From a virus, in the IMG/VR virus record IMGVR_UViG_3300037418_002743, positions 32,001-96,000 of that record: a stretch of DNA of 64,000 bases; one strand, 5' to 3'. The notes beneath the pieces were generated by a model. The model ran no database searches, had not been told where the DNA came from, and saw only the letters and a list, made by a program, of their open reading frames with translations. This document shows, piece by piece, positions 6,489 to 44,824 of this stretch; positions within the stretch are counted from its first letter, which is position 1, and each line of letters starts with the position of its first letter. Position numbers and translations under genes: made by a program.

Positions 6489-6516
6489 ATGTTACCGCGA
6501 TGTGCGGCGACGTCAA
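6489..6516 (-). promoter_or_regulatory. Palindromic-spacer promoter copy (TTGACG-16-TAACAT)
   Basis: Operator-like taccgcgatgtgcggcg at 6493-6509. Confidence 0.7.
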
Positions 6517-6692
6517 CGTTCTGTTCGGTGCTATCGACACTATAGGTGGACGCTATGTAATCCAACCTTTACGGTGCGCGGTGTCATGAGAGCCGTATCT
6601 ATTGCGACGCAGCAACCATCACCACGTGTGAGTGACAAGTCGGAGAGGTGACTCCGGGTCACTCCCCCGGCTTTGCGTGCACCCCGTCCGGT

Positions 6693-6729
6693 CATACGGT
6701 TACCCTACCGTGTCGTGCGGTAGCGTCAA
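6693..6729 (-). promoter_or_regulatory. Palindromic-spacer promoter copy with an ATG 6 nt after the -10
   Basis: TTGACG-CTACCGCACGACACGG-TAGGGT-AACCGT-ATG(6695). Confidence 0.65.
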
Positions 6730-6755
6730 GTGATGATAATTCCGACTGATGCGGA

Positions 6756-6771
6756 TCGAACACGTGTTCGA
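6756..6771. promoter_or_regulatory. Actinobacterial LexA (SOS) box
   Basis: Perfect TCGAAC-ACGT-GTTCGA, directly abutting a TACAGT -10 (6772-6777). Confidence 0.85.
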
Positions 6772-6783
6772 TACAGTGCTCGG

Positions 6784-7065
6784 GTGCCGCACCCGTACGA
6801 CGAGCGCGCCGCCGCCCAGCGGATCGCGGAGCGCGACTACCTCAACGAGGCCGCTCACCGGCTCCGCCGGCGGGCGATCGCCGACGGGTACGCAGGCATC
6901 CGCGGCCAGGACACCGCCCTTGCCTTCGCCGCGGCGATGGAGTCCTGCGCCCGCGGCTCCGACCCGCGAGGGGACCTCATGAGCGCAGCCCGCCGGATCC
7001 TCGAGGGACCCGACGGGCCGGGAGACGCACGCAGCGGAGGCGCCGCGCTCACGAAGGGCTGGTGA
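6784..7065 (+). CDS. Putative SOS-inducible leaderless hypothetical protein
   Basis: GTG at 6784 lies 6 nt after the -10 next to the SOS box; in frame with ORF 6730..7065. Confidence 0.6.
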   Translation: MPHPYDERAAAQRIAERDYLNEAAHRLRRRAIADGYAGIRGQDTALAFAAAMESCARGSDPRGDLMSAARRILEGPDGPGDARSGGAALTKGW

Positions 7066-7453
7066 GCCGGTCCGCCCGGAGCCCGGGCAACGCCGGACAC
7101 TCCGTTGAGGTGATCCGCAGCTCCGCCGCCTGCACCCACCACTCCCACGCCGCCCGGTCCGGGATGCAGTAGTCCGTCATGATGTCGCCCTCCCGGTCGA
7201 GGACGTCGAGCACGGCATAGTGGTCGCGGCACCTGGATGCGTACGGGCCCGTCGTGGCCGACGCGGTCGACCAGTTCGAGCACCGCACCCCGGCCGCGCG
7301 GGACGCATCAAGCAGTCTCCCCACTGCGTCCAGCCCGGTCGTCTCCAGAACGGCGCGGTAGGCGATTCCGTGGCGCCGCCCGTGCTCCTGGCAGCCGCGG
7401 AAAGCGCCGAAGGTGTAGGCCGCGCGGCCCTCCTCGTTCAGGTCGCGGCTCAT
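7049..7453 (-). CDS. Hypothetical phage protein
   Basis: MSRDLNEEG..., ATGA overlap with the hicA-like gene. Confidence 0.6.
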   Translation of the reverse strand: MSRDLNEEGRAAYTFGAFRGCQEHGRRHGIAYRAVLETTGLDAVGRLLDASRAAGVRCSNWSTASATTGPYASRCRDHYAVLDVLDREGDIMTDYCIPDRAAWEWWVQAAELRITSTECPALPGLRADRLTSPS

Positions 7454-7710
7454 GACGCCATCCTGCCGGGCTTCTTGCCGACCGGCGGCCAGACGAGGCC
7501 GGCGCGGCGGAGGTCCGCGATCAGGTTCGCGACGCCGCGGTGATCGGAGTTCGTGCACGGGCACACCGCGACGATCCGGCCGCGCGGGTCCCGGATCCGG
7601 GGGTGCCCGCCGCCCTTGCTCGCGTCGACGGAGAAGCCCTTGCTGACGGCCTCTTGCACTACCCGGCGGGCGTCCTTGTCGCGGATGAGGCGGAGTCCGT
7701 GTCTGCTCAT
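7450..7710 (-). CDS. hicA: HicA-like toxin/RNase domain protein
   Basis: DARRVVQEAVSKGFSV..SKGGGHPRIRDPRGRIV..PCTNSDHRGVANLIADLRRAG; HicA fold with the conserved GxH His. Confidence 0.7.
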   Translation of the reverse strand: MSRHGLRLIRDKDARRVVQEAVSKGFSVDASKGGGHPRIRDPRGRIVAVCPCTNSDHRGVANLIADLRRAGLVWPPVGKKPGRMAS

Positions 7711-8069
7711 CGGGCACCGCCGGCGGGGAGCGCGGGCTCCGCGCCGATGACGGAGCCGTCGACGACGGCCGGGTAGCCGTCGAGGCGGAGCCCCTCGACG
7801 AGGCGGGCGACGTCGTCCTCGGACCAGCAGACATGCTCGCGGGCGAACGCGAGGACGTCGGCCATCGTGCGGACCTCGTCGAGGTCGGCGGGGCCGCCGT
7901 ACTCCTCGAACGGGGAGGTGCAGGAGCAGCCGGTCGTCCAGCCGATGAAGTACCGGCCGGCGGCGTCGTCGGCGAAGATCGTGATCTGGTCGTACTCGTA
8001 GCCGCCGATGCGGTCGTGGTTCTTGTGGATCCGCAGGCCGTACTTCTCGGGGTTGAAGTAGAGGTTCAC
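7707..8069 (-). CDS. Conserved actinophage hypothetical protein
   Basis: YEYDQ...GCSCTSPFE motif; strong RBS GAGGAG. Confidence 0.7.
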   Translation of the reverse strand: MNLYFNPEKYGLRIHKNHDRIGGYEYDQITIFADDAAGRYFIGWTTGCSCTSPFEEYGGPADLDEVRTMADVLAFAREHVCWSEDDVARLVEGLRLDGYPAVVDGSVIGAEPALPAGGAR

Positions 8070-8087
8070 GTCTCTCCTCGGGAGGGA

Positions 8088-8109
8088 AGGGCCGCTGGCA
8101 GGCGGCTCT
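8088..8109 (-). promoter_or_regulatory. CUGCCA-loop leader hairpin
   Basis: AGAGCCGC-CTGCCA-GCGGCCCT, then TCCCTCCC and the RBS. Confidence 0.65.
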
Positions 8110-8178
8110 CTGTCTCTTGTCTACCCGGCGGCACCGACGGTTCCTCCGCCGACGCGCCGGGCCTTTCGTGGTATCTCC

Positions 8179-8206
8179 ACCGTACCGTATGACGCGGCAT
8201 CGTCAA
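8179..8206 (-). promoter_or_regulatory. Palindromic-spacer promoter copy
   Basis: TTGACG-ATGCCGCGTCATACGG-TACGGT. Confidence 0.65.
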
Positions 8207-8276
8207 CACTTATTAACAACGGTGCCGCCCCCGGCGGGTGCGGGGGCGGCGGGGAGCGGACGGTCCGGGCGCGGCC

Positions 8277-8468
8277 TCAGTGCCGCGCGAGTCGGGAGGC
8301 GAAGAGGTGGTGGTGCTTGACGGCGTGCACCGCGTGGCGGATGTGCTCGACGGTCTCGAAGTGCTCGGGGATCTCGACCAGCTCGAAGTGCAGGATCTCG
8401 ACGTGCAGGAGGTGGCCGAGGAGGAGGGTGGCCAGGAGGAGCAGGGCGGAGGCGATGCCGTTCGTCAT
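8277..8468 (-). CDS. Leaderless His-rich small membrane/secreted peptide
   Basis: MTNGIASALLLLATLLLG...; 11 His in 63 aa; promoter upstream and hairpin at about 8224-8250 downstream. Confidence 0.55.
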   Translation of the reverse strand: MTNGIASALLLLATLLLGHLLHVEILHFELVEIPEHFETVEHIRHAVHAVKHHHLFASRLARH

Positions 8469-8502
8469 GCCTTAAAGCTACCGCGCGGTGCGGTAGTTAC
8501 AA
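8469..8502 (-). promoter_or_regulatory. Palindromic-spacer leaderless promoter
   Basis: TTGTAA-CTACCGCACCGCGCGG-TAGCTT-TAAGGC-ATG. Confidence 0.75.
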
Positions 8503-8538
8503 GGGAAGGCGACGGCTGAGAACGAAGAAAAAGCCTGG

Positions 8539-8787
8539 TCACAGCCCCCTTGACGGGAGCGGCCCATGCTCGTCCGCGTGCCCCCGCGCCGCCTCCGCGT
8601 CAGCGAAGCCGAAGCAGAACGCCGCCTCGACGTCCGGGCCCCGACTCCCCCGCCGCCGGCGCGGTGACGGAGCCTCGACCATCAGCACCCACATCCAGCG
8701 GGAGCCGTCCGGCTTCACCCCGAGCCAGTCGCCGGACGGGAGGTCCCGCCGCCAGTACCCCGGCCGGACCTCCCGCCAGTCGGTCAC
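8539..8787 (-). CDS. Small Trp-rich hypothetical protein
   Basis: GTG at 8787 overlaps the upstream stop (VTDWREVRPGYW...). Confidence 0.5.
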   Translation of the reverse strand: MTDWREVRPGYWRRDLPSGDWLGVKPDGSRWMWVLMVEAPSPRRRRGSRGPDVEAAFCFGFADAEAARGHADEHGPLPSRGL

Positions 8788-9218
8788 GCGGGGCGGCCGT
8801 TGGCGTGCGACTCCCGCTCGAGCCGCTCCGCCGGCACGAGCTCCGCCTCCGAGTACGGGCGGCGCACAGCGGCGCGGCGGGCCTGCGCGGAGTGGTACTC
8901 GCGGAGGATCCGGGCCCGGTGCTCCCGGACCTCCGTCGGGAGCCAGTGCAGCTCGCAGGCGACGTTGAGCGGGATCCCCCGCGACTTCGCCCAGTTGGAG
9001 CATTCCGAAGGCCTGTGCGGCTCGTTGACGGAGCGGAGAGGGAGTTCCGGGTAGTGGTCACACTCGGGGCAGCACGGGGTGTGGTGCATCCCCGTGAGCC
9101 CCGAGAGGCATGCTGAGGGGAGCGACGCACACCCGGAGCAGGCCCGCAGGGTCGCGGCGGTCTCGGCGATGAGGATCGGGACGGCCGGCGCGGCGGGCGT
9201 CTCCTGGAGGACGGTCAT
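8784..9218 (-). CDS. Cys-rich hypothetical protein
   Basis: CSGC...CCPECDH...C; leader contains the CU box. Confidence 0.6.
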   Translation of the reverse strand: MTVLQETPAAPAVPILIAETAATLRACSGCASLPSACLSGLTGMHHTPCCPECDHYPELPLRSVNEPHRPSECSNWAKSRGIPLNVACELHWLPTEVREHRARILREYHSAQARRAAVRRPYSEAELVPAERLERESHANGRPA

Positions 9219-9300
9219 GGCAGTGGCCTTCTTCGGGAGGGAGTGAGGGGACGAAGAGGGCCCGGCGGCGGTTGGCAGACCGCGCCGGGCCCTTCGTGTG

Positions 9301-9507
9301 TCAGAGGCGGCGGGCGTTCATCCAGTCCGCGCCCCAGCGGGCGGAGCCCTCGGCGCAGAGTCGCAGCCACTGCTCGTTGTTGGTCGTGGCGACGGCGAGG
9401 GCGGCCTCGGAGCCGTCGGCGAAGGCGAGGTCCCGGGTCTCGGCGAGCCCGTCGGCCAGGGCTCCGGCCTCGGCGGCGGTGAGGTTCGCGGTCATCGTGT
9501 TCGTCAT
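9301..9507 (-). CDS. Leaderless small hypothetical protein (MTNTMT...)
   Basis: ATG 6 nt after the TATGGT -10 of the promoter copy at 9518-9534. Confidence 0.6.
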   Translation of the reverse strand: MTNTMTANLTAAEAGALADGLAETRDLAFADGSEAALAVATTNNEQWLRLCAEGSARWGADWMNARRL

Positions 9508-9547
9508 GTGTTCACCATACCGCGCGGTGCGGGAGCTGCAAGACCTT

Positions 9548-9904
9548 CTATCCGAGGATGTTCCGGCCGTCCGCATCCGCCTCGGCGAGGTAGCGCTGCA
9601 CGTCCTGGATCGCGTGCGCGGCGATGTCGAGGTCGAGGAGCCGACGCACCGGCTCCTTCTCCGCGTCGAGCGCGGCATCCGACACGGCCCGCACCGAGAC
9701 GCGCTCCATGCGGAGCAGGCGGGCCAGGGCGGCGTGTCCGCGCGTCGTCAGCTCCGCCTCGATGTCGACACGACGCCGGCGGGCGGACATCCGGCCCTCG
9801 GTGCGCAGGGAGTGAAGCTCGACGTCGTCGGCGGCCGCCTCCGCGGCGATCGCGGCCCGGTACTCGGCGACGGCGGCGGTGAGGGTGCGCACGGGTGCGG
9901 TCAC
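9548..9904 (-). CDS. Hypothetical helical protein
   Basis: RBS GAAGGAG; CUGCCA hairpin at 9934-9955. Confidence 0.65.
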   Translation of the reverse strand: MTAPVRTLTAAVAEYRAAIAAEAAADDVELHSLRTEGRMSARRRRVDIEAELTTRGHAALARLLRMERVSVRAVSDAALDAEKEPVRRLLDLDIAAHAIQDVQRYLAEADADGRNILG

Positions 9905-9992
9905 GGTGTTCTCCTTCGGGAGGGAAGACGGACGGCCGTGCTGGCAGGCGCGGCCCTCCGGGGTGAGCGTGAGCGGAATCGTGGGGAGTCGG

Positions 9993-10766
9993 CTATGACG
10001 CGGAGCGCACGTGAAGCTTCCCGTCCTCCCCGTGGACGAAGTGCCCGGACTCGCAGAGCTGGGCGATCACCGCGTCAATGCCGTCGGTGCGCTCCAGCAG
10101 GGTGGCGATCGCCGTCTTGCTCGTCCCGCCGTGCCACTCCCCCCGCTCGATCCGCTCCCTGATCTTCGCCACGGTCGCGGCGATGGCCCGCCGACGCTGC
10201 CCGCCGACGATCGCCGCGGCCTCCTCGAGCGACCGCGCCGGAGCGGGCCCGGGCTTCGTCTTGCGGTTGATGCGGTAGGTCTCGACCTGGCTGCGGAGCC
10301 AGTAGCCGTCGAGCACCGGGCGCGGGAAGCCGGTGTTGTCCCGGCCCGCCTTCCGGTCGGACTCCAGCTGGTAGACGCGCTGGCGGGTCACGCCCAGCTT
10401 CTCGGCGAACTCCGCGACGCTCACGACGTCCGGCATCGCGACGGCGTGGAGCCGCTGGGCCACTACCTCATCGGAGGTGAGCTCGACCTGATCCCAGCCG
10501 GTCACGCGGTAGCCGTGCCCGGCGAGGACGCCGACCAGGCAGTTCGCGGCGCGGGTGAGCCGACTGGGCAGCGCGGTGGGCGTGACCTCGTCGTCATCGT
10601 CAATGAGGACCTGGCCCTGCACGAGGTACGCGCCGTCCTGATCGTAGGAGCACATTCCGCCGATGAGCTGGGAGTCGGCAGCCCAGGCGCGGGACAGCGT
10701 CATGGCGGCGTCGGGGTGCATGGGGCGATCAAGGCGGACGCCGAGAGTCAGCGCGTGCGATGTCAT
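9993..10766 (-). CDS. AlpA/excisionase-like HTH protein with extra N-terminal domain (HicB-like antitoxin candidate)
   Basis: PDVVSVAEFAEKLGVTRQRVYQL...FPRPV...YWLRSQVETY; ATG at 10766. Confidence 0.65.
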   Translation of the reverse strand: MTSHALTLGVRLDRPMHPDAAMTLSRAWAADSQLIGGMCSYDQDGAYLVQGQVLIDDDDEVTPTALPSRLTRAANCLVGVLAGHGYRVTGWDQVELTSDEVVAQRLHAVAMPDVVSVAEFAEKLGVTRQRVYQLESDRKAGRDNTGFPRPVLDGYWLRSQVETYRINRKTKPGPAPARSLEEAAAIVGGQRRRAIAATVAKIRERIERGEWHGGTSKTAIATLLERTDGIDAVIAQLCESGHFVHGEDGKLHVRSAS

Positions 10767-10873
10767 GTCAGCATCATCCGGTGTCGCTTTCACATCGTCA
10801 AGCCGGGCTAGGTGCCCGGTTAGGCTGGCCGGGCGGCCGGGGGAGGGTCCCACTCCCCCGACCGCCCGTTCCC

Positions 10874-11131
10874 TCAGTTCATCCCCGGGTCGGGATCGCT
10901 CCCGAGCACCGGCCCCAGCCGGAACCACCTCGGCCCTTCCGCCTCCGCGAAGGAGGCGATGGCTGCCGCAAGCAGCAGCTCAAGCGCCTCGTCCTCGAGG
11001 ACGATCCGGGGGAGGTGCCATGCCGTGCCGGGTACCGCCTTGCTCTGGATCACCAGGTCCTCCTCGTTGAGGTGGAAGGTGTATCCGCGAGCGCGGAGCC
11101 CGAGGACGAACTGATCGGCCAGCTCAGTCAC
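10874..11131 (-). CDS. Hypothetical protein
   Basis: RBS AGAGGAG before GTG at 11131. Confidence 0.5.
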   Translation of the reverse strand: MTELADQFVLGLRARGYTFHLNEEDLVIQSKAVPGTAWHLPRIVLEDEALELLLAAAIASFAEAEGPRWFRLGPVLGSDPDPGMN

Positions 11132-11352
11132 TGAGCCGCTCCTCTCTGTTGAGTTATCGCTTACAAGAACTAACGTAAGTCTCGCGGGAGGGTCGCGCAA
11201 GACTTATCTACCGCGCTCTGCGGTAGCGTCCGCACCGTTGGATTGACGGGTAATTAGGACCATGACCTGCGTCAACCAGAGAGAGTCACCGCGTGAGGCC
11301 GGGCGGGTGATCCCGCACCTCCGTCGAGGGGACCGCCCGTCGCCGTCACCGC

Positions 11353-11634
11353 TCACCGGGCACGTTTGATCCCTGCCCGGTCCGCTACCGCCTCCCAGGA
11401 GTCCGCGTGCCCCTCCGCCTGCAGCGCCTGAGCGCGCCGGTAGAGCGCGACCTCGCGGTCCGCGGTCCTGTACTGCCGGGAGGCCGGATCCGCCCCGTCG
11501 CGGCGCGCTGTGGCGTCCCGGAGCCACTCCGCGATCCGCTCCGCCGGGTAGACGTGCGCGATGTTGAGCGCCTGCGCCTCCGCGGTGCGGGCCGCCCGCT
11601 CCGCCATGCGCTCCAGCGCGGTCTTCGCGGGCAT
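11353..11634 (-). CDS. Hypothetical protein
   Basis: MPAKTALERM..., coupled to the upstream gene. Confidence 0.55.
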   Translation of the reverse strand: MPAKTALERMAERAARTAEAQALNIAHVYPAERIAEWLRDATARRDGADPASRQYRTADREVALYRRAQALQAEGHADSWEAVADRAGIKRAR

Positions 11635-11831
11635 CACGCGCCCCAGATCGCGACGGCGGAGGCCTCGACGAGGACGGTGTGCCGCCCGTCGGTCACGTAC
11701 ACGCAGCCCTCGTGGGCGTGCGAGTGCACCTCGACGGGCGTGCCGACCATGATCACGCCGTACTTCTCGCCGGGCCGGGCGATCATGATGTCCCGGGTGG
11801 TCTCCCCCGCGAGCATCACCGGCGCGCTCAT
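11634..11831 (-). CDS. Small hypothetical protein (SH3-like beta composition)
   Basis: 65-aa ORF overlapping both neighbours. Confidence 0.55.
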   Translation of the reverse strand: MSAPVMLAGETTRDIMIARPGEKYGVIMVGTPVEVHSHAHEGCVYVTDGRHTVLVEASAVAIWGA

Positions 11832-12058
11832 CGCGCACCCGCCGCCGGGTAGAGCCGCGCCATCGTCGTGTGCAGCTCTCCGCCGTGGTCGCGGAGGCTC
11901 AGGCGCGCGAGCTCCTGGACGCGGCCGGTGTGCGGGGACCGGATCGAGAAGACCGCCTCGATGACGACGGGGGCGGGCGCGCCGGAGGGCATGGTCCAGC
12001 CGAGCGGGAGCAGCGCCTCCCAGCGGGGGGCGTGCGGGTCGAGGTCGGTGAGCTGCAT
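11828..12058 (-). CDS. Small hypothetical protein
   Basis: RBS GAAGGAG; CUGCCA hairpin at 12078-12103. Confidence 0.6.
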   Translation of the reverse strand: MQLTDLDPHAPRWEALLPLGWTMPSGAPAPVVIEAVFSIRSPHTGRVQELARLSLRDHGGELHTTMARLYPAAGAR

Positions 12059-12125
12059 GACGGTCTCCTTCGGGGAGGGCCGGGCGCTGGCAGGCGCCCG
12101 GCCGGCGGGAGGGATGAGGGGCGTG

Positions 12126-12476
12126 TCAGGCGGGGTCGACGCCGTAGACGACGGCGCCCGGGTACTCGTCCTCGAACGCCTCTCGGGCGGCGAGGGAGTC
12201 GACCGCGGTCACGGTGGCGATGTCGCGGATGGTGCGGCCGCGGGAGGTCTCGGTGCGGTACCAGACGCGGTAGGGCCGGGGGCCGTTCGCGGCGGCGGCT
12301 CGCTCGGCGGCGGTGAGTTCGTCGGCGATGTGGCCGATCGCGAGGGCGCCGACGGTGCCGGAGGCGACGAGGGCGGCGGCGGTGGCGCGGGCGGCGGCGG
12401 TGGCGCGGAGGTCCTCGCGGAGCTGGGCGGCGGTGCGGGAGGGAAGGGCGGAGGTGGCAGCCTCGGGGTTCGTCAT
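12126..12476 (-). CDS. Leaderless hypothetical protein (MTNPEA...)
   Basis: Promoter copy at 12487-12503. Confidence 0.65.
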   Translation of the reverse strand: MTNPEAATSALPSRTAAQLREDLRATAAARATAAALVASGTVGALAIGHIADELTAAERAAAANGPRPYRVWYRTETSRGRTIRDIATVTAVDSLAAREAFEDEYPGAVVYGVDPA

Positions 12477-12816
12477 GCGTTAACCATACCGCATGACGCG
12501 GTGAGCACAAGGGTGGCGACACCATTGCCGTTCCCCTCCGCACGTCCGGCCCCCATCTCGGTCCGCTCGGAGGGGTGCCATGCCTCCGCCCTTAGGCTTC
12601 CTAGTACGGCGATCAGGAGGGCTCGGGACGGCGTCAGGACGGCCGTCCGCTACTGGTGCACACGCGATGAAGGAGGACGTCTCTCATGACCCACAGACGG
12701 GCCCGGGCCCCGGCCCGGACAGTGAGATCGGGACCGCCCTGGTCCGGCGATCCCGATCTCGGCAAGACGCTCATCGGCACGATCAACCAGGCAGTTTCTC
12801 GAACGGAGGTCTCGCG

Positions 12817-13080
12817 ATGGCGAGAGTACGCAAGGAAGTCAAGCGGGTCGTGGCGCGGCTCCGGCCCACGACGGAGGCGGGCCCGATCGGGTGGCCGGAC
12901 GTGGCCCTGGGCGTGATCGCCCTGCTCGGGCCGCTGCTCGCGACCAGCACGACGGACCCGGCGGCGACGGAGCGGCTCGTGCGGATCCTCCGCTGGGTGT
13001 GCGCGCTCGTCTTCCTGGGCGCGGTCGCCGTGCTGGCGTACCGGCTCCCCTTCGGCGAGCTGGTCACGCTCCTGACCTGA
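12817..13080 (+). CDS. Small two-TM membrane protein
   Basis: RBS GGAGG, two hydrophobic segments, hairpin at 13098-13134. Confidence 0.55.
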   Translation: MARVRKEVKRVVARLRPTTEAGPIGWPDVALGVIALLGPLLATSTTDPAATERLVRILRWVCALVFLGAVAVLAYRLPFGELVTLLT

Positions 13081-13175
13081 CCCGCCCCGCTCCGGCGCGA
13101 AGGCCCGTCCCCTCTCCCGTGGGGCGGGCCTTCGTCGTGGGGCCGGCGGCTCCCCGAGGAACTTCGACCCGATCT

Positions 13176-13295
13176 TCAACGACGTCGGGCGGCGGCGCGG
13201 AGGTCCCGCAGCTCCGCAAGCTCGGCGTCGGTGAGCCCGCGCCGGCGCATCAGGGCCTCGAGGTCGTCGAGGCGGTCGAGGTCGTCGAGGTCCAT
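13176..13295 (-). CDS. 39-aa peptide (MDLDDLDRLDDLEAL...)
   Basis: Strong leader CCCTCCCGAAGGAGACCGTCATG; below the ORF-track size cutoff. Confidence 0.5.
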   Translation of the reverse strand: MDLDDLDRLDDLEALMRRRGLTDAELAELRDLRAAARRR

Positions 13296-13325
13296 GACGG
13301 TCTCCTTCGGGAGGGGCCGGAGCGG

Positions 13326-13547
13326 CTAGAAGCCGCGGTAGGCGTCCTTGACCGCCTCGAATCGATCCCGGAACTCGTTCATGACGCGGAGGTCGCGGCG
13401 GAGCAGGCGGCCGCGCTCCGGGGTCACGACGCCGTTGGGGATCTCGCGGAGCAGGGCGCAGAGGCGCTTGTGCTCGGCCCAGAGGTCGGTGATGGAGAGG
13501 GTGGAGGGGCGGCCGGTGGTCTTGCGGGGCTTCGTGGTGTTCGTCAT
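13326..13547 (-). CDS. Leaderless small hypothetical protein (MTNTTK...)
   Basis: Promoter copy at 13558-13574. Confidence 0.65.
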   Translation of the reverse strand: MTNTTKPRKTTGRPSTLSITDLWAEHKRLCALLREIPNGVVTPERGRLLRRDLRVMNEFRDRFEAVKDAYRGF

Positions 13548-13679
13548 GCGTTAACAATACCGCGCTACACGGTAGTTACAAGGGCTGTAGAGCGAGACCG
13601 GTAAAGAAATAACGCGGCCCGGTCCCCCACCAGCCGAGGACCGGGCCGCTCTACCGGCGGGACGCCGCCGGGGCTCACA

Positions 13680-14072
13680 TCACGACAGCTGGAAGACCAG
13701 CTGCGCGGAGTCGATCTCGGAGGAGAAGGAGCGGAGCAGGTGCTTCGCCGCGACCCGGACCGCGGAGCCAGCGGCGTTGGCGAAGGCGGACGACGTCGTC
13801 GCCTCGGAGTCGAGGGCCTGACCGATCCGGCTCGCGAGCGAGTCGCGGCGGCGCTCGGCCGGCGCCTTGAGTGTCGCGGCGAGGATCGCGACCTTCGTCT
13901 CGGCGATCACCGCGTCGCGGAGGTAGTGCTCCGCGGCGTAGACGAGGGACGGGCAGTCGGCGATCATCGCCCGCTGCTTGGTGACGGTCTGCTCGGCGGA
14001 GGCGAGCTGGACCTTGAGCGCGTGCTCGAGCTCGACGTCGGTCAGGGCGGCGGAGGCGGGCTTGGTGCTCAT
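13680..14072 (-). CDS. Hypothetical helical protein
   Basis: Promoter copy at 14138-14154, CUGCCA hairpin at 14100-14119, RBS AAGGAG. Confidence 0.7.
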   Translation of the reverse strand: MSTKPASAALTDVELEHALKVQLASAEQTVTKQRAMIADCPSLVYAAEHYLRDAVIAETKVAILAATLKAPAERRRDSLASRIGQALDSEATTSSAFANAAGSAVRVAAKHLLRSFSSEIDSAQLVFQLS

Positions 14073-14165
14073 CGAGGTCTCCTTGGTTCGGGAGGGAAGG
14101 GGCCGCTGGCAGGCGGTCCGTCTTACGTTGTTGAGCTTACCGCGGTGCGCGGTGAGTACAAGGGC

Positions 14166-14390
14166 TTATGCCCAGGTGGTTCGGGCCGGGATCTCGACGC
14201 CGTACCGGCGGCCGAGGGCGTGCACGGCGGCCTCGTCGGCGACCCGCTTCGTCCAGAGGTGCACGCCGCCGGTGGCGTTGTAGGCGTCGACGATGAAGCG
14301 CTCGTAGTAGGGGTTCCAAGTCACGTAGGCGAAGGGGAGGGCCGGGGTGCCGTCGTCCTCGATGTCCGGGGTGATGGTGTTCGTCGTCAT
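14166..14390 (-). CDS. Leaderless small hypothetical protein (MTTNTI...)
   Basis: Promoter copy at 14401-14417. Confidence 0.65.
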   Translation of the reverse strand: MTTNTITPDIEDDGTPALPFAYVTWNPYYERFIVDAYNATGGVHLWTKRVADEAAVHALGRRYGVEIPARTTWA

Positions 14391-14420
14391 GACTTCACCA
14401 TACCGCAGCATGCGGGAGGA

Positions 14421-14570
14421 TCAAGCCTTTCGGCGGGAGGTGACCCAGCGGTCGACCTCGACGCCGCGCTCGTACTCGCGGACCTCGAAGTAGACGCGCG
14501 GGTCACCGGCCGGGCCGGCGAGCGGCTCCGGGTCCCGGACGGTGCCGGTGAAGTCGGCGGGGATGTTCAT
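14421..14570 (-). CDS. 49-aa peptide (MNIPADF...)
   Basis: RBS GGAG; its TGA stop forms part of the next -35 box. Confidence 0.5.
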   Translation of the reverse strand: MNIPADFTGTVRDPEPLAGPAGDPRVYFEVREYERGVEVDRWVTSRRKA

Positions 14571-14582
14571 GACGGGCTCCGA

Positions 14583-14885
14583 TCAGGCGGCGTGGAAGGG
14601 GATCTCGGCGCGGGTGCGGCCCCACGCCCCGCCTTGCGCGGCGGTGTGGCGGCGGAGCGCGTCGAGGTTGGCGAAGGCGGCGATGGGGCGGGAGCCGATG
14701 AGCACTTGGACGGTCGCGCCGCCGGGAGTGCCGTGGAGCGGGATCTCGGTGCGGGTGTAGCCGAGGAGCGCGGAGCCGCCGCGGGCGGTCATCCAGCGGC
14801 GCATCGCGGTGATGTCGGCGAAGGCGCGGATGGGGCGGCCGGCGTCGAGGAGGAGGGTCGCGGTGGGGGCTTCAGTGTTCGTCAT
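14583..14885 (-). CDS. Leaderless protein with an internal duplication
   Basis: Promoter copy at 14896-14912; two RPIxAFA...TRxEIP units. Confidence 0.65.
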   Translation of the reverse strand: MTNTEAPTATLLLDAGRPIRAFADITAMRRWMTARGGSALLGYTRTEIPLHGTPGGATVQVLIGSRPIAAFANLDALRRHTAAQGGAWGRTRAEIPFHAA

Positions 14886-14959
14886 GTGATTACCATACCG
14901 CGTACCGCGGGAGGTTCAAGCCCTTCGGCCGGGCGGGTTCGCCCGGCCGGGCCGGAGCC

Positions 14960-15262
14960 CTAGTGCCCGAGGCACTTCGCGCAGTCGATCTCGTACCGAG
15001 AGGACACGGCGGAGGCGGCGGAGCGGGCGTTGCGGTAGCGCTCGGCGCCGCAGTAGACGCCCACCGTCTTGCCGACCGACTCCCCGTAGGCGTTGAGGTA
15101 GCGGGTGACCGTGGCGCGGTGCACGGTCTTGGCCTTGCCGACGACCGCGCGGCCGTCGGTGTTCTCCTCGACGGTGACGACCTGCTTGTGCGCCGGCTTG
15201 CCGGCGTCGGCGGCGATCTCGGCGGCGGTGGCGGGGCGGGTGGTGACCGTGGCGTTCGTCAT
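14960..15262 (-). CDS. Leaderless small protein with Zn-binding-like C-terminus
   Basis: Promoter copy at 15273-15289; H...YCG...CAKC. Confidence 0.65.
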   Translation of the reverse strand: MTNATVTTRPATAAEIAADAGKPAHKQVVTVEENTDGRAVVGKAKTVHRATVTRYLNAYGESVGKTVGVYCGAERYRNARSAASAVSSRYEIDCAKCLGH

Positions 15263-15292
15263 GTCTTAAAGATACCGCGTCACGCGGGAGTT

Positions 15293-15478
15293 TCAAGCCG
15301 CTGAGGCAAGCCAGGTCCAGAACGCTCGCACCGGCCGGGCGATCGCGTCGCAGACGGCGGCGAGGAAGTGCACGACGTCCGCGCTGAACGCCACGTACGG
15401 GGCGGTGGCCACCGCCGCGACGAGCGCGAGGGCGGCGAGGACCAGGAGGGCGACGGCGGCGCGCTCGGTGGCGTCCAT
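15293..15478 (-). CDS. Small membrane protein
   Basis: RBS GAAGGAG; hydrophobic N-terminal half. Confidence 0.55.
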   Translation of the reverse strand: MDATERAAVALLVLAALALVAAVATAPYVAFSADVVHFLAAVCDAIARPVRAFWTWLASAA

Positions 15479-15504
15479 GACAGGTCTCCTTCGGATGGGG
15501 TCGT

Positions 15505-15735
15505 TCACCGGATGCCGGCGACGTACAGCAGGCCCTCGATGAGCCGGAGCACGAAGACGCCGGCGTCGATGATCGTGTGGCCGATCAGGGTCCACACGGT
15601 CTCGATCATCCCGACGTAGGCGGCCGGGCCGACGATCAGGACGAGGAGCAGGACCGGGAGCAGGCCGAGGCCGGCGGGGGCGACGGCGTCGATGATCGTG
15701 CGGGCGGCGGAGGCGGTGCGTGCGGTGTTCGTCAT
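15505..15735 (-). CDS. Leaderless small membrane protein (MTNTAR...)
   Basis: Promoter copy at 15747-15763; two hydrophobic segments. Confidence 0.6.
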   Translation of the reverse strand: MTNTARTASAARTIIDAVAPAGLGLLPVLLLVLIVGPAAYVGMIETVWTLIGHTIIDAGVFVLRLIEGLLYVAGIR

Positions 15736-15819
15736 GCCGTTGAGCTTGCCGCGCGGTGCGGTGTGGTTCAAGAGGTAGTTTCCTCTTGAGTCCGCCGCAT
15801 AGAGCGGTATGGTTGTTGC

Positions 15820-16062
15820 ATGACGACGACGGAGCTTGCCGCGGACCACCTCTCCGACGAGGACTTCGCCCTCGCCGAGCGGATCCTCGACCGCCTCTGC
15901 GCCAAGGGCGACCGGAGGGCGTACAGCCCCTCCGAGATCGGCCGGATCGCGAAGGCCGAGACCTCCGCAGTGCGCCGGGTCCTCCCCGTGCTCGTCGAGG
16001 ACGGGAACCTCGCCGTGGCCGGGAACGGCGCCTGGCGCCGCTACACCTTCGTGATGGGCTGA
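15820..16062 (+). CDS. Leaderless winged-helix DNA-binding protein
   Basis: YSPSEIGRIAKAETSAVRRVLPVLVEDGNLAVAGNGAWRRYTF; plus-strand promoter copy TTGAGT-16-TATGGT-6-ATG. Confidence 0.65.
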   Translation: MTTTELAADHLSDEDFALAERILDRLCAKGDRRAYSPSEIGRIAKAETSAVRRVLPVLVEDGNLAVAGNGAWRRYTFVMG

Positions 16063-16063
16063 C

Positions 16064-18228: not shown

Positions 18229-18284
18229 GGCGGTCTCCTTCGGTCGGGAGGGAACGGGTGGCGCCCTGGCAGGGGCGGGGAGGG

Positions 18285-19615: not shown

Positions 19616-19694
19616 GACACGTCCAGGGGTAGGGAGGGACGGGGCGTGCCGCCCGGCTGGCAGGCCGGGCGGCACGATCGTGCTGAGGGGGGTT

Positions 19695-25108: not shown

Positions 25109-25291
25109 CGTCTTCTTCTCTTAGGGAGGGAAGGGACATTTGACGAAGCCCTGACGTGGACCAACGGGTTGGCAGACCCGCCGCGCGGGGCTTCGTCGCT
25201 TTCTACGATCACTCTACCGCTGTTCGCGGTAGCGTCAACACCTTTCTTTCTCGCCGCTAGCCGGCGGCAGGGTGTTTCTCCTGGTCAGACC

Positions 25292-27011: not shown

Positions 27012-27155
27012 GATCGTTGATTCCCGTCTCTCGTGTTCGGCAGGACCGAACGTTACCCGGAGGTGTTCATGACGTCAAACACACGTGTCGATGGGGCCGG
27101 ACGCTCTGAGGCGGACGCCCGTGTCACTTCGGACAATGGGGACAATGGGGGAAAG

Positions 27156-29324: not shown

Positions 29325-29507
29325 CGGGGTTCCTCCTCGATCCGGGGGCTTCGCTCTGTGCGGTGCCCTTGCGATGACTCAAAGATACCGCGCTACACGG
29401 TAGGTACAAGGGCTGACGGGCAGAAAAACGAGCGGCCCGGGTGGTTCGCCCTGCTGGACGAGCCCACCCGGGCCGCTCTCCCCTTCCTCCGCTCCCCAGC
29501 GGAAGCC

Positions 29508-32564: not shown

Positions 32565-32721
32565 GAGGGGCCGCTCTCCTTCGGGTGGGAGGGATGGGGA
32601 TGGTGGCCCCTGGCAGGGGGCCGTCGTGCACTCACTACGTTACCGCGTTATGCGGCGGAGTCAATCGGCATAAGGGTGATGCGCCCCGGCCGGGCCTTTC
32701 GCGGCCCGGCCGGGGGGTCGA

Positions 32722-33774: not shown

Positions 33775-33999
33775 CTTGTACTCCAGGGAGGGAAGGGGGG
33801 TGGCCCCGCCGGGGAGGCGGTGCCGTCGTGCAACACAGAGATTACCGCGCCGCGCGGTGTTGTCAACGGATGACGAGAAGATTTTTCTGCGGGGGCTCCG
33901 CGCCGGCGCCGGAGCCGCACGTCAGGGCACGAAAAAGGGGGAGGGCCCGCCGGCACGGATGCCGGGGGCCCTCCCCCTGAGACGCTCTCTGCGCGGCGC

Positions 34000-35205: not shown

Positions 35206-35254
35206 GGTGTCCTCCGGGAGGGAAGCGGTCGTACGTGGCAGATGCGGACGACCA

Positions 35255-35331
35255 TACCGCGCTGCGCGGTATCTGTCACCTCCGACTAGTTCGGCGGGAG
35301 CGCTTGACCTTACCGCGTCACGCGGTAAGGT
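35255..35331. promoter_or_regulatory. Back-to-back pair of palindromic-spacer promoters
   Basis: taccgcgctgcgcggta (35255-35271, minus) and TTGACC-ttaccgcgtcacgcgg-TAAGGT (35304-35331, plus). Confidence 0.75.
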
Positions 35332-35361: not shown

Positions 35362-35628
35362 ATGGCCCGCACCGCCAAGATCACCACCCACTTCGTCCTC
35401 ATCTCCGCGGTCGACTCCCGTGGGCGCGCCCGCAAGGACCAGCCCCGCGAGTACGCCGTCGAGGAGCGGCAGGGACAGGTCCGCCGCACCCTCGGCCGCG
35501 TCTACGGCGGCGACGGCCACTGGATGGCACTCCCCGTCGGCGCCGGCGCCTGGACCCGCTACCACCCCACCCGCGGGGCGGCGCTCGATGCGCTCCGCCT
35601 CCGGGAGGACTGCCGCGACTTCTGGTGA
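35362..35628 (+). CDS. Small hypothetical protein
   Basis: RBS GAGGAGG, own promoter copy. Confidence 0.65.
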   Translation: MARTAKITTHFVLISAVDSRGRARKDQPREYAVEERQGQVRRTLGRVYGGDGHWMALPVGAGAWTRYHPTRGAALDALRLREDCRDFW

Positions 35629-36664
35629 CCCCGGTCGGGCGGTTCGTCGTGCTGTTAGAGGTCGGCAGAACTTAGTAGTAGTACGTAGTGCCATAGACCC
35701 TGCCGAGAACTGCGCGTAGGCTCATCGCCCTCTCGCGACCGGCAGGGATGAAATGACCATCCAGGTCTGCCGGCTCAGTAACTGACGAGGTACCCGTTTG
35801 CCCCGATGCCGGGTAGACGAACTAAGCCCGACGTCGACGGGCATGCCCATTATTCGACGGTCCCGGAATAGCGCCAGCGACGCGAAGGCGCAGTTGATGA
35901 CGGAGCCGGGAGCTATCCATCTGACTCAAAGATCCAGAGTGTTAGGAGATCGTTATGGCACCCCCAGCGCAAGATATTGCAGTGGCACTGATGCAGCAAT
36001 GGGTCTTTCTTTCCGATGACCCCCAAGTCACAAATTTGATGCCGAAGGCATCGTTCCAGGAGGTTGCGGACCGCAACTATCAGCTCAAGAACAAGAAAGT
36101 CAGAAGGTTCTTGCAATGGGAGGATCAAATTGGCATGAATATTGGCTGGACCGATGATGCTTCGGCTGCGACGGCAACGAAGGTCCAGCGGTGGTTCTTC
36201 ACAAGGGAAGACACCGCTAAGGCGGGGCCAATAACCTATGGAGAGCCGATTGCGCTGGCCAACGGAGAGAAGCCTTCCTTCATCCATTACGAGAGCCAGA
36301 CGATCGGCGTAAATCTTCAGTGGCATGACAAACCTTCGTACGAATGGATATTACTTGGAGGCTCGAGGAACCAACCAGTCGGCGTTGGCGAGAGCATCGC
36401 GATCTATAACCAAGTCGATCTCGAGTGCTTGATATACGTCGACCGCACAATGGGGGGAGACGTGGGCTGGCCCAGCAGCTCAACTTGGTTTGATCAGATT
36501 GGGGATCTATTTAAGGGCCTCACTAAGGCGGTGATAGAGAAGGCGATTAAGGATGGCCTCGTAGAATTGTTTAAGAAACTCGCGAAATAGCCTTTCGCTG
36601 GCACGGCATTCGCGCTGCGGCGCTGCACGCCGTGCGCCGGGCGGGAGGACTGCCGCGACTTCTG
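35602..36664. mobile_element. Low-GC insertion (moron) bounded by a 23-bp direct repeat
   Basis: CGGGAGGACTGCCGCGACTTCTG at 35602-35624 and 36642-36664; the interior is visibly more AT-rich. Confidence 0.65.
35955..36590 (+). CDS. Low-GC protein with threefold internal repeat (beta-trefoil/lectin-like) and C-terminal amphipathic helix
   Basis: FLQWEDQIGMNIGW / FIHYESQTIGVNLQW / LIYVDRTMGGDVGW; RBS AGGAG. Confidence 0.7.
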   Translation: MAPPAQDIAVALMQQWVFLSDDPQVTNLMPKASFQEVADRNYQLKNKKVRRFLQWEDQIGMNIGWTDDASAATATKVQRWFFTREDTAKAGPITYGEPIALANGEKPSFIHYESQTIGVNLQWHDKPSYEWILLGGSRNQPVGVGESIAIYNQVDLECLIYVDRTMGGDVGWPSSSTWFDQIGDLFKGLTKAVIEKAIKDGLVELFKKLAK

Positions 36665-37083: not shown

Positions 37084-37224
37084 GTGGCACGGAACGGCAC
37101 GGCGGCACGGACACGGACTCCAGGAGGGTGCCGGCACTGCTCTGCACGGCCCTGACCACCGGAAACGGGTGTGTTCCATCCGTTCCGTGCCACTGTTCCG
37201 TGCCGGCACAGTGGCCACCGTGCA
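37084..37224. repeat. GGCACGG(A) direct/inverted repeat cluster; candidate clt (TraB recognition locus)
   Basis: Direct copies at 37086, 37096, 37104, 37112 and 37144; inverted at 37184, 37197 and 37217; 14-bp perfect IR at 37084-37097/37180-37193. Confidence 0.5.
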
Positions 37225-37267
37225 AGTTTCCCCTTGTACTTACCGCGTGACGCGGTATCTTTAAGTC

Positions 37268-37570
37268 ATGAGCAACGACACCGCCACCGCCGCCCCGATC
37301 GCCACCGCCTCCGGCTTCTACACCGTCGCCGTCAAGGGCCTCCGCGGCCGCAAGTGGTTCGACGCCGGCTGCGGCCGCTGCGGCGACCAGGCCTTCGTCC
37401 AGTCGCTCTGCGACTCCGTCGCCGCCGACCACCCCGAGCTGCGATTCCAGGTCATGGACCCCAAGGGCCTCACCTACGCCCCCGACAAGTACCGCCCCTG
37501 GGCCGCCGCCTACGGCACCGAGAAGGACGACGACGTCAACGTCGACGAGCTCTCCGACGCCGAGCTCTGA
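37268..37570 (+). CDS. Leaderless stand-alone cassette gene
   Basis: TTGTAC-TTACCGCGTGACGCGG-TATCTT-TAAGTC-ATG; terminator hairpin at 37578-37608. Confidence 0.7.
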   Translation: MSNDTATAAPIATASGFYTVAVKGLRGRKWFDAGCGRCGDQAFVQSLCDSVAADHPELRFQVMDPKGLTYAPDKYRPWAAAYGTEKDDDVNVDELSDAEL

Positions 37571-37577
37571 CAGCAAA

Positions 37578-39967: not shown

Positions 39968-40010
39968 GGGCGGCTCTCCCAGGGGAAGTGGGCGGGCGAA
40001 GGCAGAGACG

Positions 40011-42752: not shown

Positions 42753-43010
42753 ATGATCAGGAAGATCGAGATCGAGACGATGAGCACGCTCGCCGGCACG
42801 GCCGACTGCTCCGACCGCTACGAGTGCCCCGCGGTGCTCGCGCTGTCGGACCGGCCGGACGTCTACCACCTGGTGGTGAAGGCGGACTCGATCGTCACCG
42901 ACGCCGAGGAGCTCGCCGCGCTCCGTGCGCAGCGCAAGCTCGCCGACGACGAGATCGTGGTGACCCAGGACCGGCGCGTGATCGACGCACTGCGAGGAGG
43001 TGGAAGCTGA
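42753..43010 (+). CDS. Small CxxxxxCP protein (DUF397-like partner)
   Basis: DCSDRYECPAVL...YHLVVK; first gene of the DUF6879/XRE operon. Confidence 0.6.
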   Translation: MIRKIEIETMSTLAGTADCSDRYECPAVLALSDRPDVYHLVVKADSIVTDAEELAALRAQRKLADDEIVVTQDRRVIDALRGGGS

Positions 43011-43576
43011 TGCCGCAGCTGACCGGCCGCGAGATGGCCGAGTTCATCGAGGCGCACTACACCTCCCCCGGGGACAACCTCTTCCGGATGGAGCGTCTCC
43101 CCATCTACGCGGGGAACGCCGCCCAGACGGCGCGCTGGCTCACCGGAGCCGCGGAGCCGGACTGGGAGGTCAAGCAGGGCTGGCTCGACGCTCTCCGGGA
43201 GGACCGAGAGCGCGGGCTGCGGGCGCAGCGCGTGCGTGTCTTCACTCCGGGGATGACGGACGACGAGAGGGCCGCATGCGCCTTCGGGTACGCCTACAAC
43301 GGCCGGTACGAGGAGATCAGGGTGATCCACCGCGGCGAGCACCCGCCGGTGGACATCCTGGATCACGACTACTGGCTCATCACGCCTGCCCGCGGGCAGG
43401 TCGAGGTCCTGCGGATGCACTACGCGGACGACGGGGCCTTCCTCGGCGCGGACGTGGTGCCGCGTGACGGACACGAGCCGTACCTGCGGGAGAGCCGGCT
43501 GGCCTGGGCGATTGCGGAGGACTTCGCGCCGTGGTGGGAGCGGCACACCGAGCTGCACGAGCGGCTGGCGGCCTGA
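43010..43576 (+). CDS. DUF6879 family protein
   Basis: FRMERLPIY...RVRVF...GEHPP...DYWLI...MHYADDGAFLG. Confidence 0.8.
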   Translation: MPQLTGREMAEFIEAHYTSPGDNLFRMERLPIYAGNAAQTARWLTGAAEPDWEVKQGWLDALREDRERGLRAQRVRVFTPGMTDDERAACAFGYAYNGRYEEIRVIHRGEHPPVDILDHDYWLITPARGQVEVLRMHYADDGAFLGADVVPRDGHEPYLRESRLAWAIAEDFAPWWERHTELHERLAA

Positions 43577-43580
43577 CCAC

Positions 43581-44393
43581 ATGCCTGCAAGGACGCGCCG
43601 GGTGCCGGGCGGCCGGGACGAACTGTCCCGGCTGCTCGTCACCCTCCGCGGCACCAAGACCCAGGGCGAGGCCGGCGCGCTGATCGGGGTCAACCAGTCC
43701 AGGATCTCCCGCGCGGAGTCCGGACGCGGCGGGCTCACCGCGGAGCAGGCCGACGCCTACGCCCAGGCGCTCGGCGCATCCCGGCGGGACCGCAACCGCC
43801 TTGTCCAGCTCGTAAAGACCTTCGAGGCCGGCAGCATCACGACCCGGACGACGCTGGTCCGCAAGGCTCCCGAGATCCAGGCCCGGATCGAGAAGCTCTA
43901 CCGCGAGTCGACCGCGATCCGCAGCTGGCAGCCCGAGATCATCCCGGGCGCCGCTCAGACGCGCGCCTACACGCTGGCCGTGGTCGCCCCGATGACTCCC
44001 GGGCCGGCGTGGTGGACGCCGCGCCAGGCCCGGATCGACATGCTCGGCGCGCCCGGGCGCACCTTCCACCTCCTCGTCTCCGAGGCCGCTCTCCGCTGGG
44101 GCATCGGCTCCCGGGAGGTTATGGCGGAGCAGATGCAGCATCTGGACGCCGTGAGCCGCCTCCGCGGCGTCCGGCTCGGTGTCGTGCCGCTCGACGTCGT
44201 GCACCCGGTCGCGCCGCCCTCGGCGTTTGAGCTGTACGGCTCCCGGACCGCCTCCGTGGCGACGCTCTCCGGCACGGCCTTCGTTGAGGACCGGCCCGAC
44301 ATCGAGCGCTACGAGGAGGACTTCAACGCCCTCGCCGACCTCGCGCGGTACGACGACGACGCCCGCGCGCTCTTCGGATCGGTCTGGTCGTGA
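43581..44393 (+). CDS. XRE HTH plus DUF5753 transcription regulator
   Basis: TQGEAGALIGVNQSRISRAESG; IPGAAQTRAY, LVSEAALRW, VMAEQMQHL. Confidence 0.85.
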   Translation: MPARTRRVPGGRDELSRLLVTLRGTKTQGEAGALIGVNQSRISRAESGRGGLTAEQADAYAQALGASRRDRNRLVQLVKTFEAGSITTRTTLVRKAPEIQARIEKLYRESTAIRSWQPEIIPGAAQTRAYTLAVVAPMTPGPAWWTPRQARIDMLGAPGRTFHLLVSEAALRWGIGSREVMAEQMQHLDAVSRLRGVRLGVVPLDVVHPVAPPSAFELYGSRTASVATLSGTAFVEDRPDIERYEEDFNALADLARYDDDARALFGSVWS

Positions 44394-44401
44394 ACGACGA
44401 A

Positions 44402-44435
44402 AGCGCCCCCTCCCGCGGGTGCGGGAGGGGGCGCT
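44402..44435. terminator. Bidirectional hairpin terminator
   Basis: AGCGCCCCCTCCCGC-GGGT-GCGGGAGGGGGCGCT perfect inverted repeat. Confidence 0.7.
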
Positions 44436-44445
44436 GGGCGGGCGG

Positions 44446-44766
44446 TCAGCGGAAGCTCTCGATCCACTCGAGGAAGGCGACCGCCAGCAGGCGGGCCTTG
44501 AGCTGGGTCTCGATCTCGCGCCGGTCGCCGCCGGTGAGGGCCCGGTCGATCTCGCAGAGCGCGTCCTCGCGGCGGCCGGCCTTGTAGTCGGCCGTCATGC
44601 GGCGGACGGCGGTCGTGAAGTCGTCGAGGGAGAGGACGCCGTAGGTGACGCCGTTCCAGGTGAAGATCTCGCCCGCGTGGCGGAGCGCGCCTCGGGCCCG
44701 GATGACCGCGTAGATCAGGGCGGTGGAGGAGAGGACGGGGGCGGCGGGGGCTGCGGTGTTCGTCAT
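44446..44766 (-). CDS. Leaderless stand-alone cassette gene (MTNTAA...)
   Basis: Promoter copy at 44778-44794; sits between the XRE operon and the DUF2637 gene. Confidence 0.65.
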   Translation of the reverse strand: MTNTAAPAAPVLSSTALIYAVIRARGALRHAGEIFTWNGVTYGVLSLDDFTTAVRRMTADYKAGRREDALCEIDRALTGGDRREIETQLKARLLAVAFLEWIESFR

Positions 44767-44824
44767 GTCAGTTAAGCTACCGCGTGTTACGGTAAGCACA
44801 AGGCCAGTTGACGAGGGAGTTCGA

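Follow-up and report, generated by a model that had tools for sequence, protein, structure and literature searches.

A 17-bp dyad in the spacers of 21 predicted phage promoters: very probably a promoter-operator regulon

The locus and its recurrent palindrome

The DNA examined here, referred to as the window, is a 64,000-nucleotide stretch (bases 32001-96000) of a 105,275-bp virus in IMG/VR, record IMGVR_UViG_3300037418_002743, which is about 72% G+C and is rated 92% complete. It carries many copies of a 17-bp palindrome, TACCGC-N5-GCGGTA, set between the -35 and -10 boxes of 21 predicted promoters, and the sequence indicates that the feature is very probably a promoter-operator regulon. PHROG matches place major head, portal and large terminase genes and a tyrosine integrase to the left of the window, and RecE-like, RecT-like, FtsK/TraB-like ATPase, endolysin and tail genes inside it; nearly all genes found by a purpose-written coding-potential gene caller are on the minus strand. 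The most similar portal protein shares 23% identity and the most similar RecE-like protein approximately 40%; megablast of 12 kb and 10.5 kb of the sequence against GenBank phages returned no match, and IMG/VR, when searched, yielded no relative of the RecE-like protein. Most proteins of the phage are orphans. DNA of the phage is present in rhizosphere and soil metagenomes, with no RNA run among the listed holders.

The palindrome is far more frequent than composition would predict. Exact matches number 6 (starting at 8479, 11209, 25215, 35255, 35311 and 37241) against 0 in 100 shuffles, where 0 were expected, and allowing up to 2 mismatches gives 22 matches against 3.2 +/- 1.7 expected and a shuffle maximum of 8. 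The starts of these 22 matches are identical to those listed in a first-pass annotation of the window. All 22 are intergenic, in a genome of which intergenic DNA makes up 13.2%. No copy lies beyond 44778 within the window and the head, tail and lysis genes have no promoter-operator copy, in agreement with the earlier observation that the structural genes are free of it; a lone further match with 2 mismatches, at genome position 103100 among the tail genes outside the window, is intragenic and without promoter boxes. A weight-matrix scan found one further unit outside the window, at genome position 24253. The units are otherwise confined to approximately 52 kb of non-structural genes, so that the description of the motif as genome-wide has to be given up. 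Many copies, intergenic placement and over-representation in the phage are what is expected of dispersed operators. Two pairs of sites stand back to back (15747/15793 and 35255/35311), three of the six exact sites are those at 35255, 35311 and 37241, and the best sites adjoin regulatory-looking regions.

Promoter geometry

A common layout is seen in 21 of the copies: cTTGNNN, 2 nt, yaCCGC-N5-GCGG and TAnnnT, in which the TA that ends the palindrome serves as the first two bases of the -10 box. Among the 21 aligned units T3 of the -35 box is invariant and T4 and G5 are at least 90% conserved, and in the -10 box A26 and T30 are invariant and T25 is present in 20. Nineteen units have a spacer of 16 nt, and the other two (15747 and 35255) have one of 17 nt. 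Sigma-70/HrdB geometry, as proposed at first pass, is thereby upheld for 21 of the 22 copies; the accompanying statement that the palindrome fills a 16-bp spacer in nearly every copy is good for the same 21 once the two 17-nt spacers are allowed for. The copy left over, at 11209-11225, is an exact palindrome of undefined strand that has no TTG -35 box and a -10 of TAGATA, and is regarded as atypical. Of the oriented units 18 are on the minus strand and 3, those at 15793, 35311 and 37241, are on the plus strand, as they had been labelled.

With a 40-nt weight matrix the 21 units score 22-55 bits, and the best score from 20 shuffled genomes is 13.4 bits. A strict scan for the E. coli consensus recovers 2 of the 14 units in the 6-16.5 kb region, and it misses most of them because their -10 interiors are G+C-rich. 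In promoter coordinates the dyad spans predicted positions -27 to -11 with its centre near -19. As 21 of 22 sites are inside promoter spacers, they differ from stoperators, which would be located mostly outside promoters.

MerR-type activation had also been suggested for these spacers. Promoters of MerR-type activators need spacers of 19-20 bp, and the spacers here are 16-17 bp; no match to the MerR family was found in a Pfam scan of approximately 70 window proteins, and the product of 34000-34593, which had been called MerR-like and named as a possible binder, matches neither MerR nor any other Pfam family. MerR-type control is not supported, as the over-long spacer that it calls for is absent.

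Leaderless starts and leaders

In 11 units an ATG follows the -10 box at a distance of 6 nt (9 units) or 7 nt (2 units). The usual actinobacterial distance from -10 to +1 puts the start on the A of the ATG in these 11 units, and leaderless mRNAs are therefore predicted for them. The gene caller, which was blind to the motif, picked the same ATG, equal to the predicted +1, in 10 of the 11, and 7 of the 11 ATG-proximal units begin ATGACGAAC. Seven of the predicted leaderless units are on the minus strand and serve small genes: 8475..8502 (exact palindrome 8479-8495; gene 8277-8468; 49.9 bits; start by coding potential at the predicted +1), 9514..9541 (palindrome 9518-9534; gene 9301-9507), 12483..12510 (12487-12503; gene 12126-12476), 13554..13581 (13558-13574; gene 13326-13547), 14397..14424 (14401-14417; gene 14166-14390), 14892..14919 (14896-14912; gene 14583-14885) and 15269..15296 (15273-15289; gene 14960-15262). 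Two more are on the plus strand, namely 15786..15813 (palindrome 15793-15809), which is predicted to drive the winged-helix gene 15820-16062, and 37234..37261 (exact palindrome 37241-37257; gene 37268-37570), the best unit at 54.8 bits. The ATG is 7 nt past the -10 in two minus-strand units, 15743..15771 (palindrome 15747-15763), which has a weak -10 (CAAGCT) and the 17-nt spacer, and 44774..44801 (palindrome 44778-44794; gene 44446-44766). The minus-strand unit 6702..6729 (palindrome 6706-6722; TTGACG-16-TAGGGT, 43.1 bits) has an ATG 6 nt past the -10 that opens a 51-codon ORF.

The remaining units have leaders of roughly 40-170 nt. Those on the minus strand are 6489..6516 (palindrome 6493-6509; TTGACG-16-TAACAT, 34.7 bits, found by the strict sigma-70 scan too), 8179..8206 (8183-8199), ahead of a DUF7574 gene at 7707-8069, 14134..14161 (14138-14154; gene 13680-14072), 29382..29409 (29386-29402; gene 28443-29324), 32637..32664 (32641-32657; DUF3145 gene 31809-32564) and 33839..33866 (33843-33859; DUF932 gene 32722-33774). 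Unit 25211..25238, also on the minus strand and with an exact palindrome (25215-25231), heads an operon that includes the RecE-like gene 23509-24618 and the RecT-like gene 22034-23512. The divergent pair consists of 35251..35279 on the minus strand (exact palindrome 35255-35271; -35 GTGACA; 17-nt spacer) and 35304..35331 on the plus strand (exact palindrome 35311-35327; TTGACC-16-TAAGGT, 50.5 bits), which precedes an 88-aa gene at 35362-35628.

Several other features are found around these units. The genes between 8277 and 16062 form an array; they are very small (49-130 codons), nearly all lack a family match, and many have their own promoter-operator head. A recurrent element of 5' leaders and intercistronic regions, consisting of a hairpin whose loop reads CUGCCA, next a UCCCUCCC box and last a ribosome-binding site, occurs behind palindrome promoters and inside operons alike, at approximately 6318-6490, 8070-8180, 9219-9300, 9893-9992, 12059-12125, 14073-14135, 18229-18284, 19616-19694, 25109-25210, 32565-32640 and 35206-35250. 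Just upstream of the 37241 unit, 37084-37205 holds iteron-like direct and inverted copies of GGCACGGAACGG, including a perfectly complementary 14-nt pair 82 nt apart, which could be an origin or a centromere-like site.

The word outside the phage

The exact word was counted in 401 genomes of the genus Streptomyces (about 8.6 Mb), which hold 0-6 copies each and roughly 340 sites in total, never clustered; it is rarer there than a reversed control pattern, and the phage has 6 copies in 0.105 Mb. One unpublished genome of this set, G131, has one copy, and the claim is independent of it. The first-pass annotation had asked whether the word might be equally common in genes or in the host: it is absent from genes and rare in these 401 genomes, and from this count the dyad does not appear to be a host word. 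An exact-pattern scan of IMG/VR gave single, chance-like matches only, the same scan of 185,579 genomes (one per species) gave single, chance-like occurrences among the matches listed, and a weight-matrix scan of the loci fetched found no other element with several copies.

These counts bear on the proposal that the protein on the dyad is a host transcription factor, an activator or an anti-repressor, and that the phage has borrowed a host signal for the timing of its genes. Such a factor would be in keeping with the fact that no phage protein can be assigned as the binder and that most phage proteins are orphans. The rarity and scatter of the word in Streptomyces argue otherwise, as does the promoter itself: near-consensus hexamers and a 16-bp spacer leave an activator unneeded, the longer spacers of MerR-type activation are lacking, and a site centred near -19 overlaps the region occupied by polymerase. 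A host factor or activator is on balance a distinctly improbable explanation.

Three IMG/VR contigs (L045/L183, L182 and L184, of 62, 82 and 131 kb) each have a multi-copy promoter unit of their own with a conserved spacer element. Among these, TTGACA-tGCATACAg...TTACTGTATGCA occurs at least 8 times within 20 kb, TTGACATGGTA...GGTAGCGT occurs 3 times and GTGGTACAGT 5-7 times.

Conservation and strain variation

Alignment of the 21 units shows columns C12, C13 and G14 and columns C22, G23 and G24 to be invariant, giving an invariant core of CCG...CGG, and the outer bases of the upstream arm are degenerate (T in 14 of 21, A in 13 of 21). Pairwise identity reaches 0.94-0.95 for the CCGC core, the GCGG core and the TA, is 0.88 for the TTG, and drops to 0.34-0.41 across the N5 centre, the flanks and the interior of the -10, against a background of approximately 0.30. 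As the arms are conserved while the free columns are near random, the units appear to be old, with specific positions held by selection and not by recent copying. We know of no role for the upstream arm in sigma-70 promoters; it mirrors the downstream arm at three invariant positions, which is the mark expected of dimer binding.

A palindrome may also be conserved as a nucleic-acid hairpin, either as a terminator or processing site for read-through transcripts or as an attC-type recombination site at cassette boundaries. The cassettes are tightly packed, so that read-through would transcribe the dyad, whole cassettes distinguish the strain variants and have joints at 11209 and around 14138-14401, and two of the dyads are among the terminator-like stems listed by a consensus scan. 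Counting of pairs in the alignment, however, found no compensatory change, as no base pair is altered on both sides; 11% of the pair cells are unpaired and shuffles pair equally well. Arms that are conserved as sequence without covariation point to a protein site rather than to an RNA or DNA stem. The stem would be just 6 bp, the T-rich run that could pass for a U tract is the -10 box, a hairpin would leave unexplained why the dyad keeps a fixed register with both promoter boxes, and integron attC sites are far longer. A real terminator-like hairpin is also present as a separate structure, at 13614-13649, just upstream of the 13554..13581 unit. A hairpin function is consequently considered very improbable.

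The strain variants also show what is constant and what is replaced in the array. A 38.5-kb contig from another soil sample is about 98% identical to the phage and colinear with it except for whole or partial replacements of cassettes in the array, at 11210-11352, 12391-13192 and 14146-14383; in two metagenome variants the 143 nt at 11210-11352 are replaced by 20 nt that include a dyad, TCCCGC-N5-GCGGGA. Genes thus turn over behind conserved control heads. For contigs covering 6300-16100, none of the 40 differences listed, out of 326, falls in a hexamer or arm, and no conclusion on selection is drawn from this number. The 211-codon gene at 35955-36590 on the plus strand has low G+C, AT-rich codons and no Pfam match, lies in a 1.1-kb stretch left empty by the G+C-based gene caller, and looks like a recently acquired moron (an extra gene from elsewhere).

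The turnover is of consequence for another explanation, in which the dyad is intrinsic to the promoter and no regulator is dedicated to it: GCGG would function as an extended -10-like element, and CCGC would have been inherited with a cassette that spreads by duplication or by exchange between phages. The G at -14 is the key base of an extended -10, the pairs 13558/29386 and 15273/37241 share centre or flank sequence (0.67-0.78 identity in columns that are otherwise free), variant strains have exchanged cassettes at the units or close by, and unrelated phages have multi-copy promoter units of their own. Yet the free columns are near random overall (0.36) where the upstream CCG is invariant in 21 of 21, descent alone cannot explain invariance at precisely mirror positions, and no known sigma contact reads -25 to -22. 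A promoter-intrinsic origin is therefore regarded as unlikely.

Candidate binding proteins

Seven proteins recognised as DNA-binding are encoded in the window. The one ranked first as binder of the dyad is an 80-aa winged-helix protein encoded on the plus strand at 15820-16062, under the 15793 unit and back to back with the 15747 unit. No Pfam family matches it, and it belongs to phrog_7658, of unknown function, in a family of 18 representatives among 1.8 billion proteins. An AlphaFold2 model (pLDDT 85) has three helices followed by a beta-hairpin wing, and its structural neighbours are generic (TubR, MarR, AspA). Homologues are encoded in the three viral contigs described above, each directly behind the contig's own multi-copy promoter unit, and the conserved spacers of these units differ from contig to contig; within the stretches fetched, the contigs share almost no other gene with the phage. 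The homologue P0002/P0003 is 62-65% identical. At 23 metagenome loci with homologues the contexts are mixed and include a fusion to a Cys-rich N-terminal domain, and the TACCGC dyad is absent from the upstream stretches read there, a reading that did not include a matrix scan.

This pattern fits an autoregulated early-gene repressor, without amounting to proof. The winged-helix protein, which the first-pass annotation had already placed among the possible binders, thus keeps its place at the head of the list by virtue of its confident fold and its position under a unit, but its identification as the binder is a tentative one, and it is more probable that the binder is another protein. More tentatively still, the family may represent a new class of phage early-gene autoregulator that moves between unrelated actinobacterial phages. 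On each transfer it would acquire a new multi-copy promoter-operator unit, with the recognition helix and the operator co-varying; if this is true, such protein and operator pairs would be orthogonal repressor/promoter tools for high-G+C hosts.

The product of 35362-35628 is placed second. This 88-aa plus-strand protein of unknown fold is encoded under a perfect site and has a weak resemblance (E 0.007) to the winged-helix protein, over the C-terminal half of the latter; it has no family match, AlphaFold2 run without an alignment gave pLDDT 40 and no usable model, and a search of the ESM Atlas with this protein and the 37268 protein returned only unnamed clusters below 0.9. Next comes a 77-aa winged-helix protein consisting of a LexA DNA-binding domain only (2183-2416, minus strand; PF01726, 73.8 bits), an alternative candidate, followed by the HTH_31 proteins or a protein not yet recognised.

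The HTH_31 proteins include a CI/Cro-like divergent pair, made up of a gene at 26745-27011 on the minus strand, which the coding-potential gene caller overlooked, and an HTH_31-like gene at 27075/27156-27578 on the plus strand. The pair has a palindrome of its own at 27035-27051, GTTCGG-CAGGA-CCGAAC (6-N5-6), which overlaps the -10 and start region of the promoter of the Cro-like gene, and this different palindrome points to a separate small circuit run by the pair. The XRE protein at 27156, previously named as a candidate, belongs to this pair, whose shared control region has no TACCGC site. A one-mismatch copy of the GTTCGG palindrome at 46044-46060 lies 20 nt before a parA-like gene, and it is possible that the palindrome is an operator linking the immunity switch to partition. 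A further member is the HTH_31-DUF5753 protein (43602-44393, plus strand), which together with a small protein and a DUF6879 protein forms a three-gene module at 42753-44393 on the same strand.

The other two recognised proteins are an Lsr2-like nucleoid-associated protein (4218-4565, minus strand), with both its dimerisation and DNA-binding domains, and a phage zinc-finger protein (17471-17926). A 46%-identical copy of the Lsr2-like protein is encoded in the unrelated viral contig L182.

The proposed regulon

Taken together, these features make the dyad a probable operator, at which one dimeric repressor encoded by the phage would block RNA polymerase. Each unit would be a strong host-type promoter of the HrdB/SigA class, predicted to be strong without help because its hexamers are near consensus and its spacer is 16 bp. 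A phage-encoded helix-turn-helix or winged-helix dimer would bind the dyad, and once bound over -27 to -11 it would keep RNA polymerase off the -35 and -10 boxes; as such a dimer would exclude polymerase, repression is the natural reading. From the same sequence we infer a phage-encoded binder and repression over activation, and promoter activity and start sites are to be understood as predicted ones. One protein would in this way control in concert some 21 transcription units that are otherwise independent, and about half of these are predicted to start exactly on an ATG. As a speculation, the bound dimer could also hinder upstream read-through between the packed cassettes.

A single regulator, as originally proposed, stays the best reading, with approximately 21 units in place of 22. 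The accompanying term accessory-gene regulon is apt for the accessory genes and too narrow for the whole: the genes switched would be those of the tiny orphan-gene array, the RecE/RecT operon, the DUF932 and DUF3145 genes and three plus-strand genes.

Several observations weigh against one dedicated repressor. The downstream arm overlaps the TA of the -10 box and the extended -10 region, including the G at -14, so that conservation there may be partly intrinsic to the promoter; the invariant core is made up of G and C only in a 72% G+C genome, and the two outer bases of the upstream arm are 60-67% conserved. None of the seven recognised DNA-binding proteins can be assigned to the dyad, and the association with the winged-helix gene rests on four elements, in a setting where small early genes are often found behind such promoters anyway. 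The Streptomyces background is only a proxy for the genome of the host, and no relative with the same word was found.

If the repressor reading holds, one small protein switches approximately 21 compact and mostly insulated promoters, many of them leaderless. The phage would then be a clean natural model of how actinobacterial phages of high G+C coordinate their early genes and express leaderless mRNAs, and a source of a tight, portable promoter/operator pair for Streptomyces-type hosts. Cassette turnover behind identical control heads illustrates how phages can add new orphan genes to an existing regulon. As long as the binder is not in hand, the gain is an incremental one.

Comparison with known systems

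One of the closest described arrangements is that of phage P1, in which the C1 repressor has 22 dispersed and asymmetric 17-bp operators (PMC8546580). Both are temperate phages with plasmid-style partition genes and approximately 22 scattered 17-bp sites, by which one repressor would govern many operons. In contrast to the P1 operators, the present site is a dyad and is found in the same register inside every promoter spacer of the 21 units, and its binding by a repressor is deduced from sequence. No C1 homologue was recognised in the present phage, in an annotation that did not specifically seek one.

Stoperator systems offer a second comparison. In the L5/Cluster A system (PMC9283540) and in the R4-type system of Streptomyces phages (PMC10276819), asymmetric sites are bound by a monomer and act on elongation. 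Those of L5 are 13-mers whose orientation follows the direction of transcription; their monomer has two DNA-binding domains, and most of them block elongation instead of initiation. The likeness is that an actinobacterial phage has over 20 sites for a repressor, placed in short intergenic spaces, with global silencing of its genes. The present sites differ from those of L5 in being symmetric and inside promoters.

Cluster O mycobacteriophages have a 17-bp dyad repeat, TGTTCGGNNNCCGAACA, in 34 copies per genome, with function and binder unknown (PMC4351075). They resemble the present phage as actinophages with a 17-bp dyad in tens of copies and with SigA-like promoters, some of them predicted to be leaderless. 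Their arms, however, are 7-3-7 (TGTTCGG-N3-CCGAACA) and of other sequence, so that the present dyad is not a copy of theirs, 10 of the 34 copies in Corndog are intragenic, and the repeats are not described as filling promoter spacers. The Cluster O half-site GTTCGG resembles the second palindrome of the present phage, at 27035, and differs from it in spacing.

In the temperate Streptomyces phage phiC31, the c repressor reportedly binds conserved inverted repeats (CIRs), 17 bp in length and with many intergenic copies, which are said, from the work of Ingham and colleagues in 1994 and of Wilson and colleagues in 1995, to include operators at the repressor's own gene. The early promoters of phiC31 are reportedly not of the sigma-70 type. 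The kind of circuit proposed here is thus familiar from the textbook cases of P1, L5 and phiC31, and the operator sequence is new; the present case is set apart by a dyad held in one register within promoter spacers and by its coupling to predicted leaderless starts.

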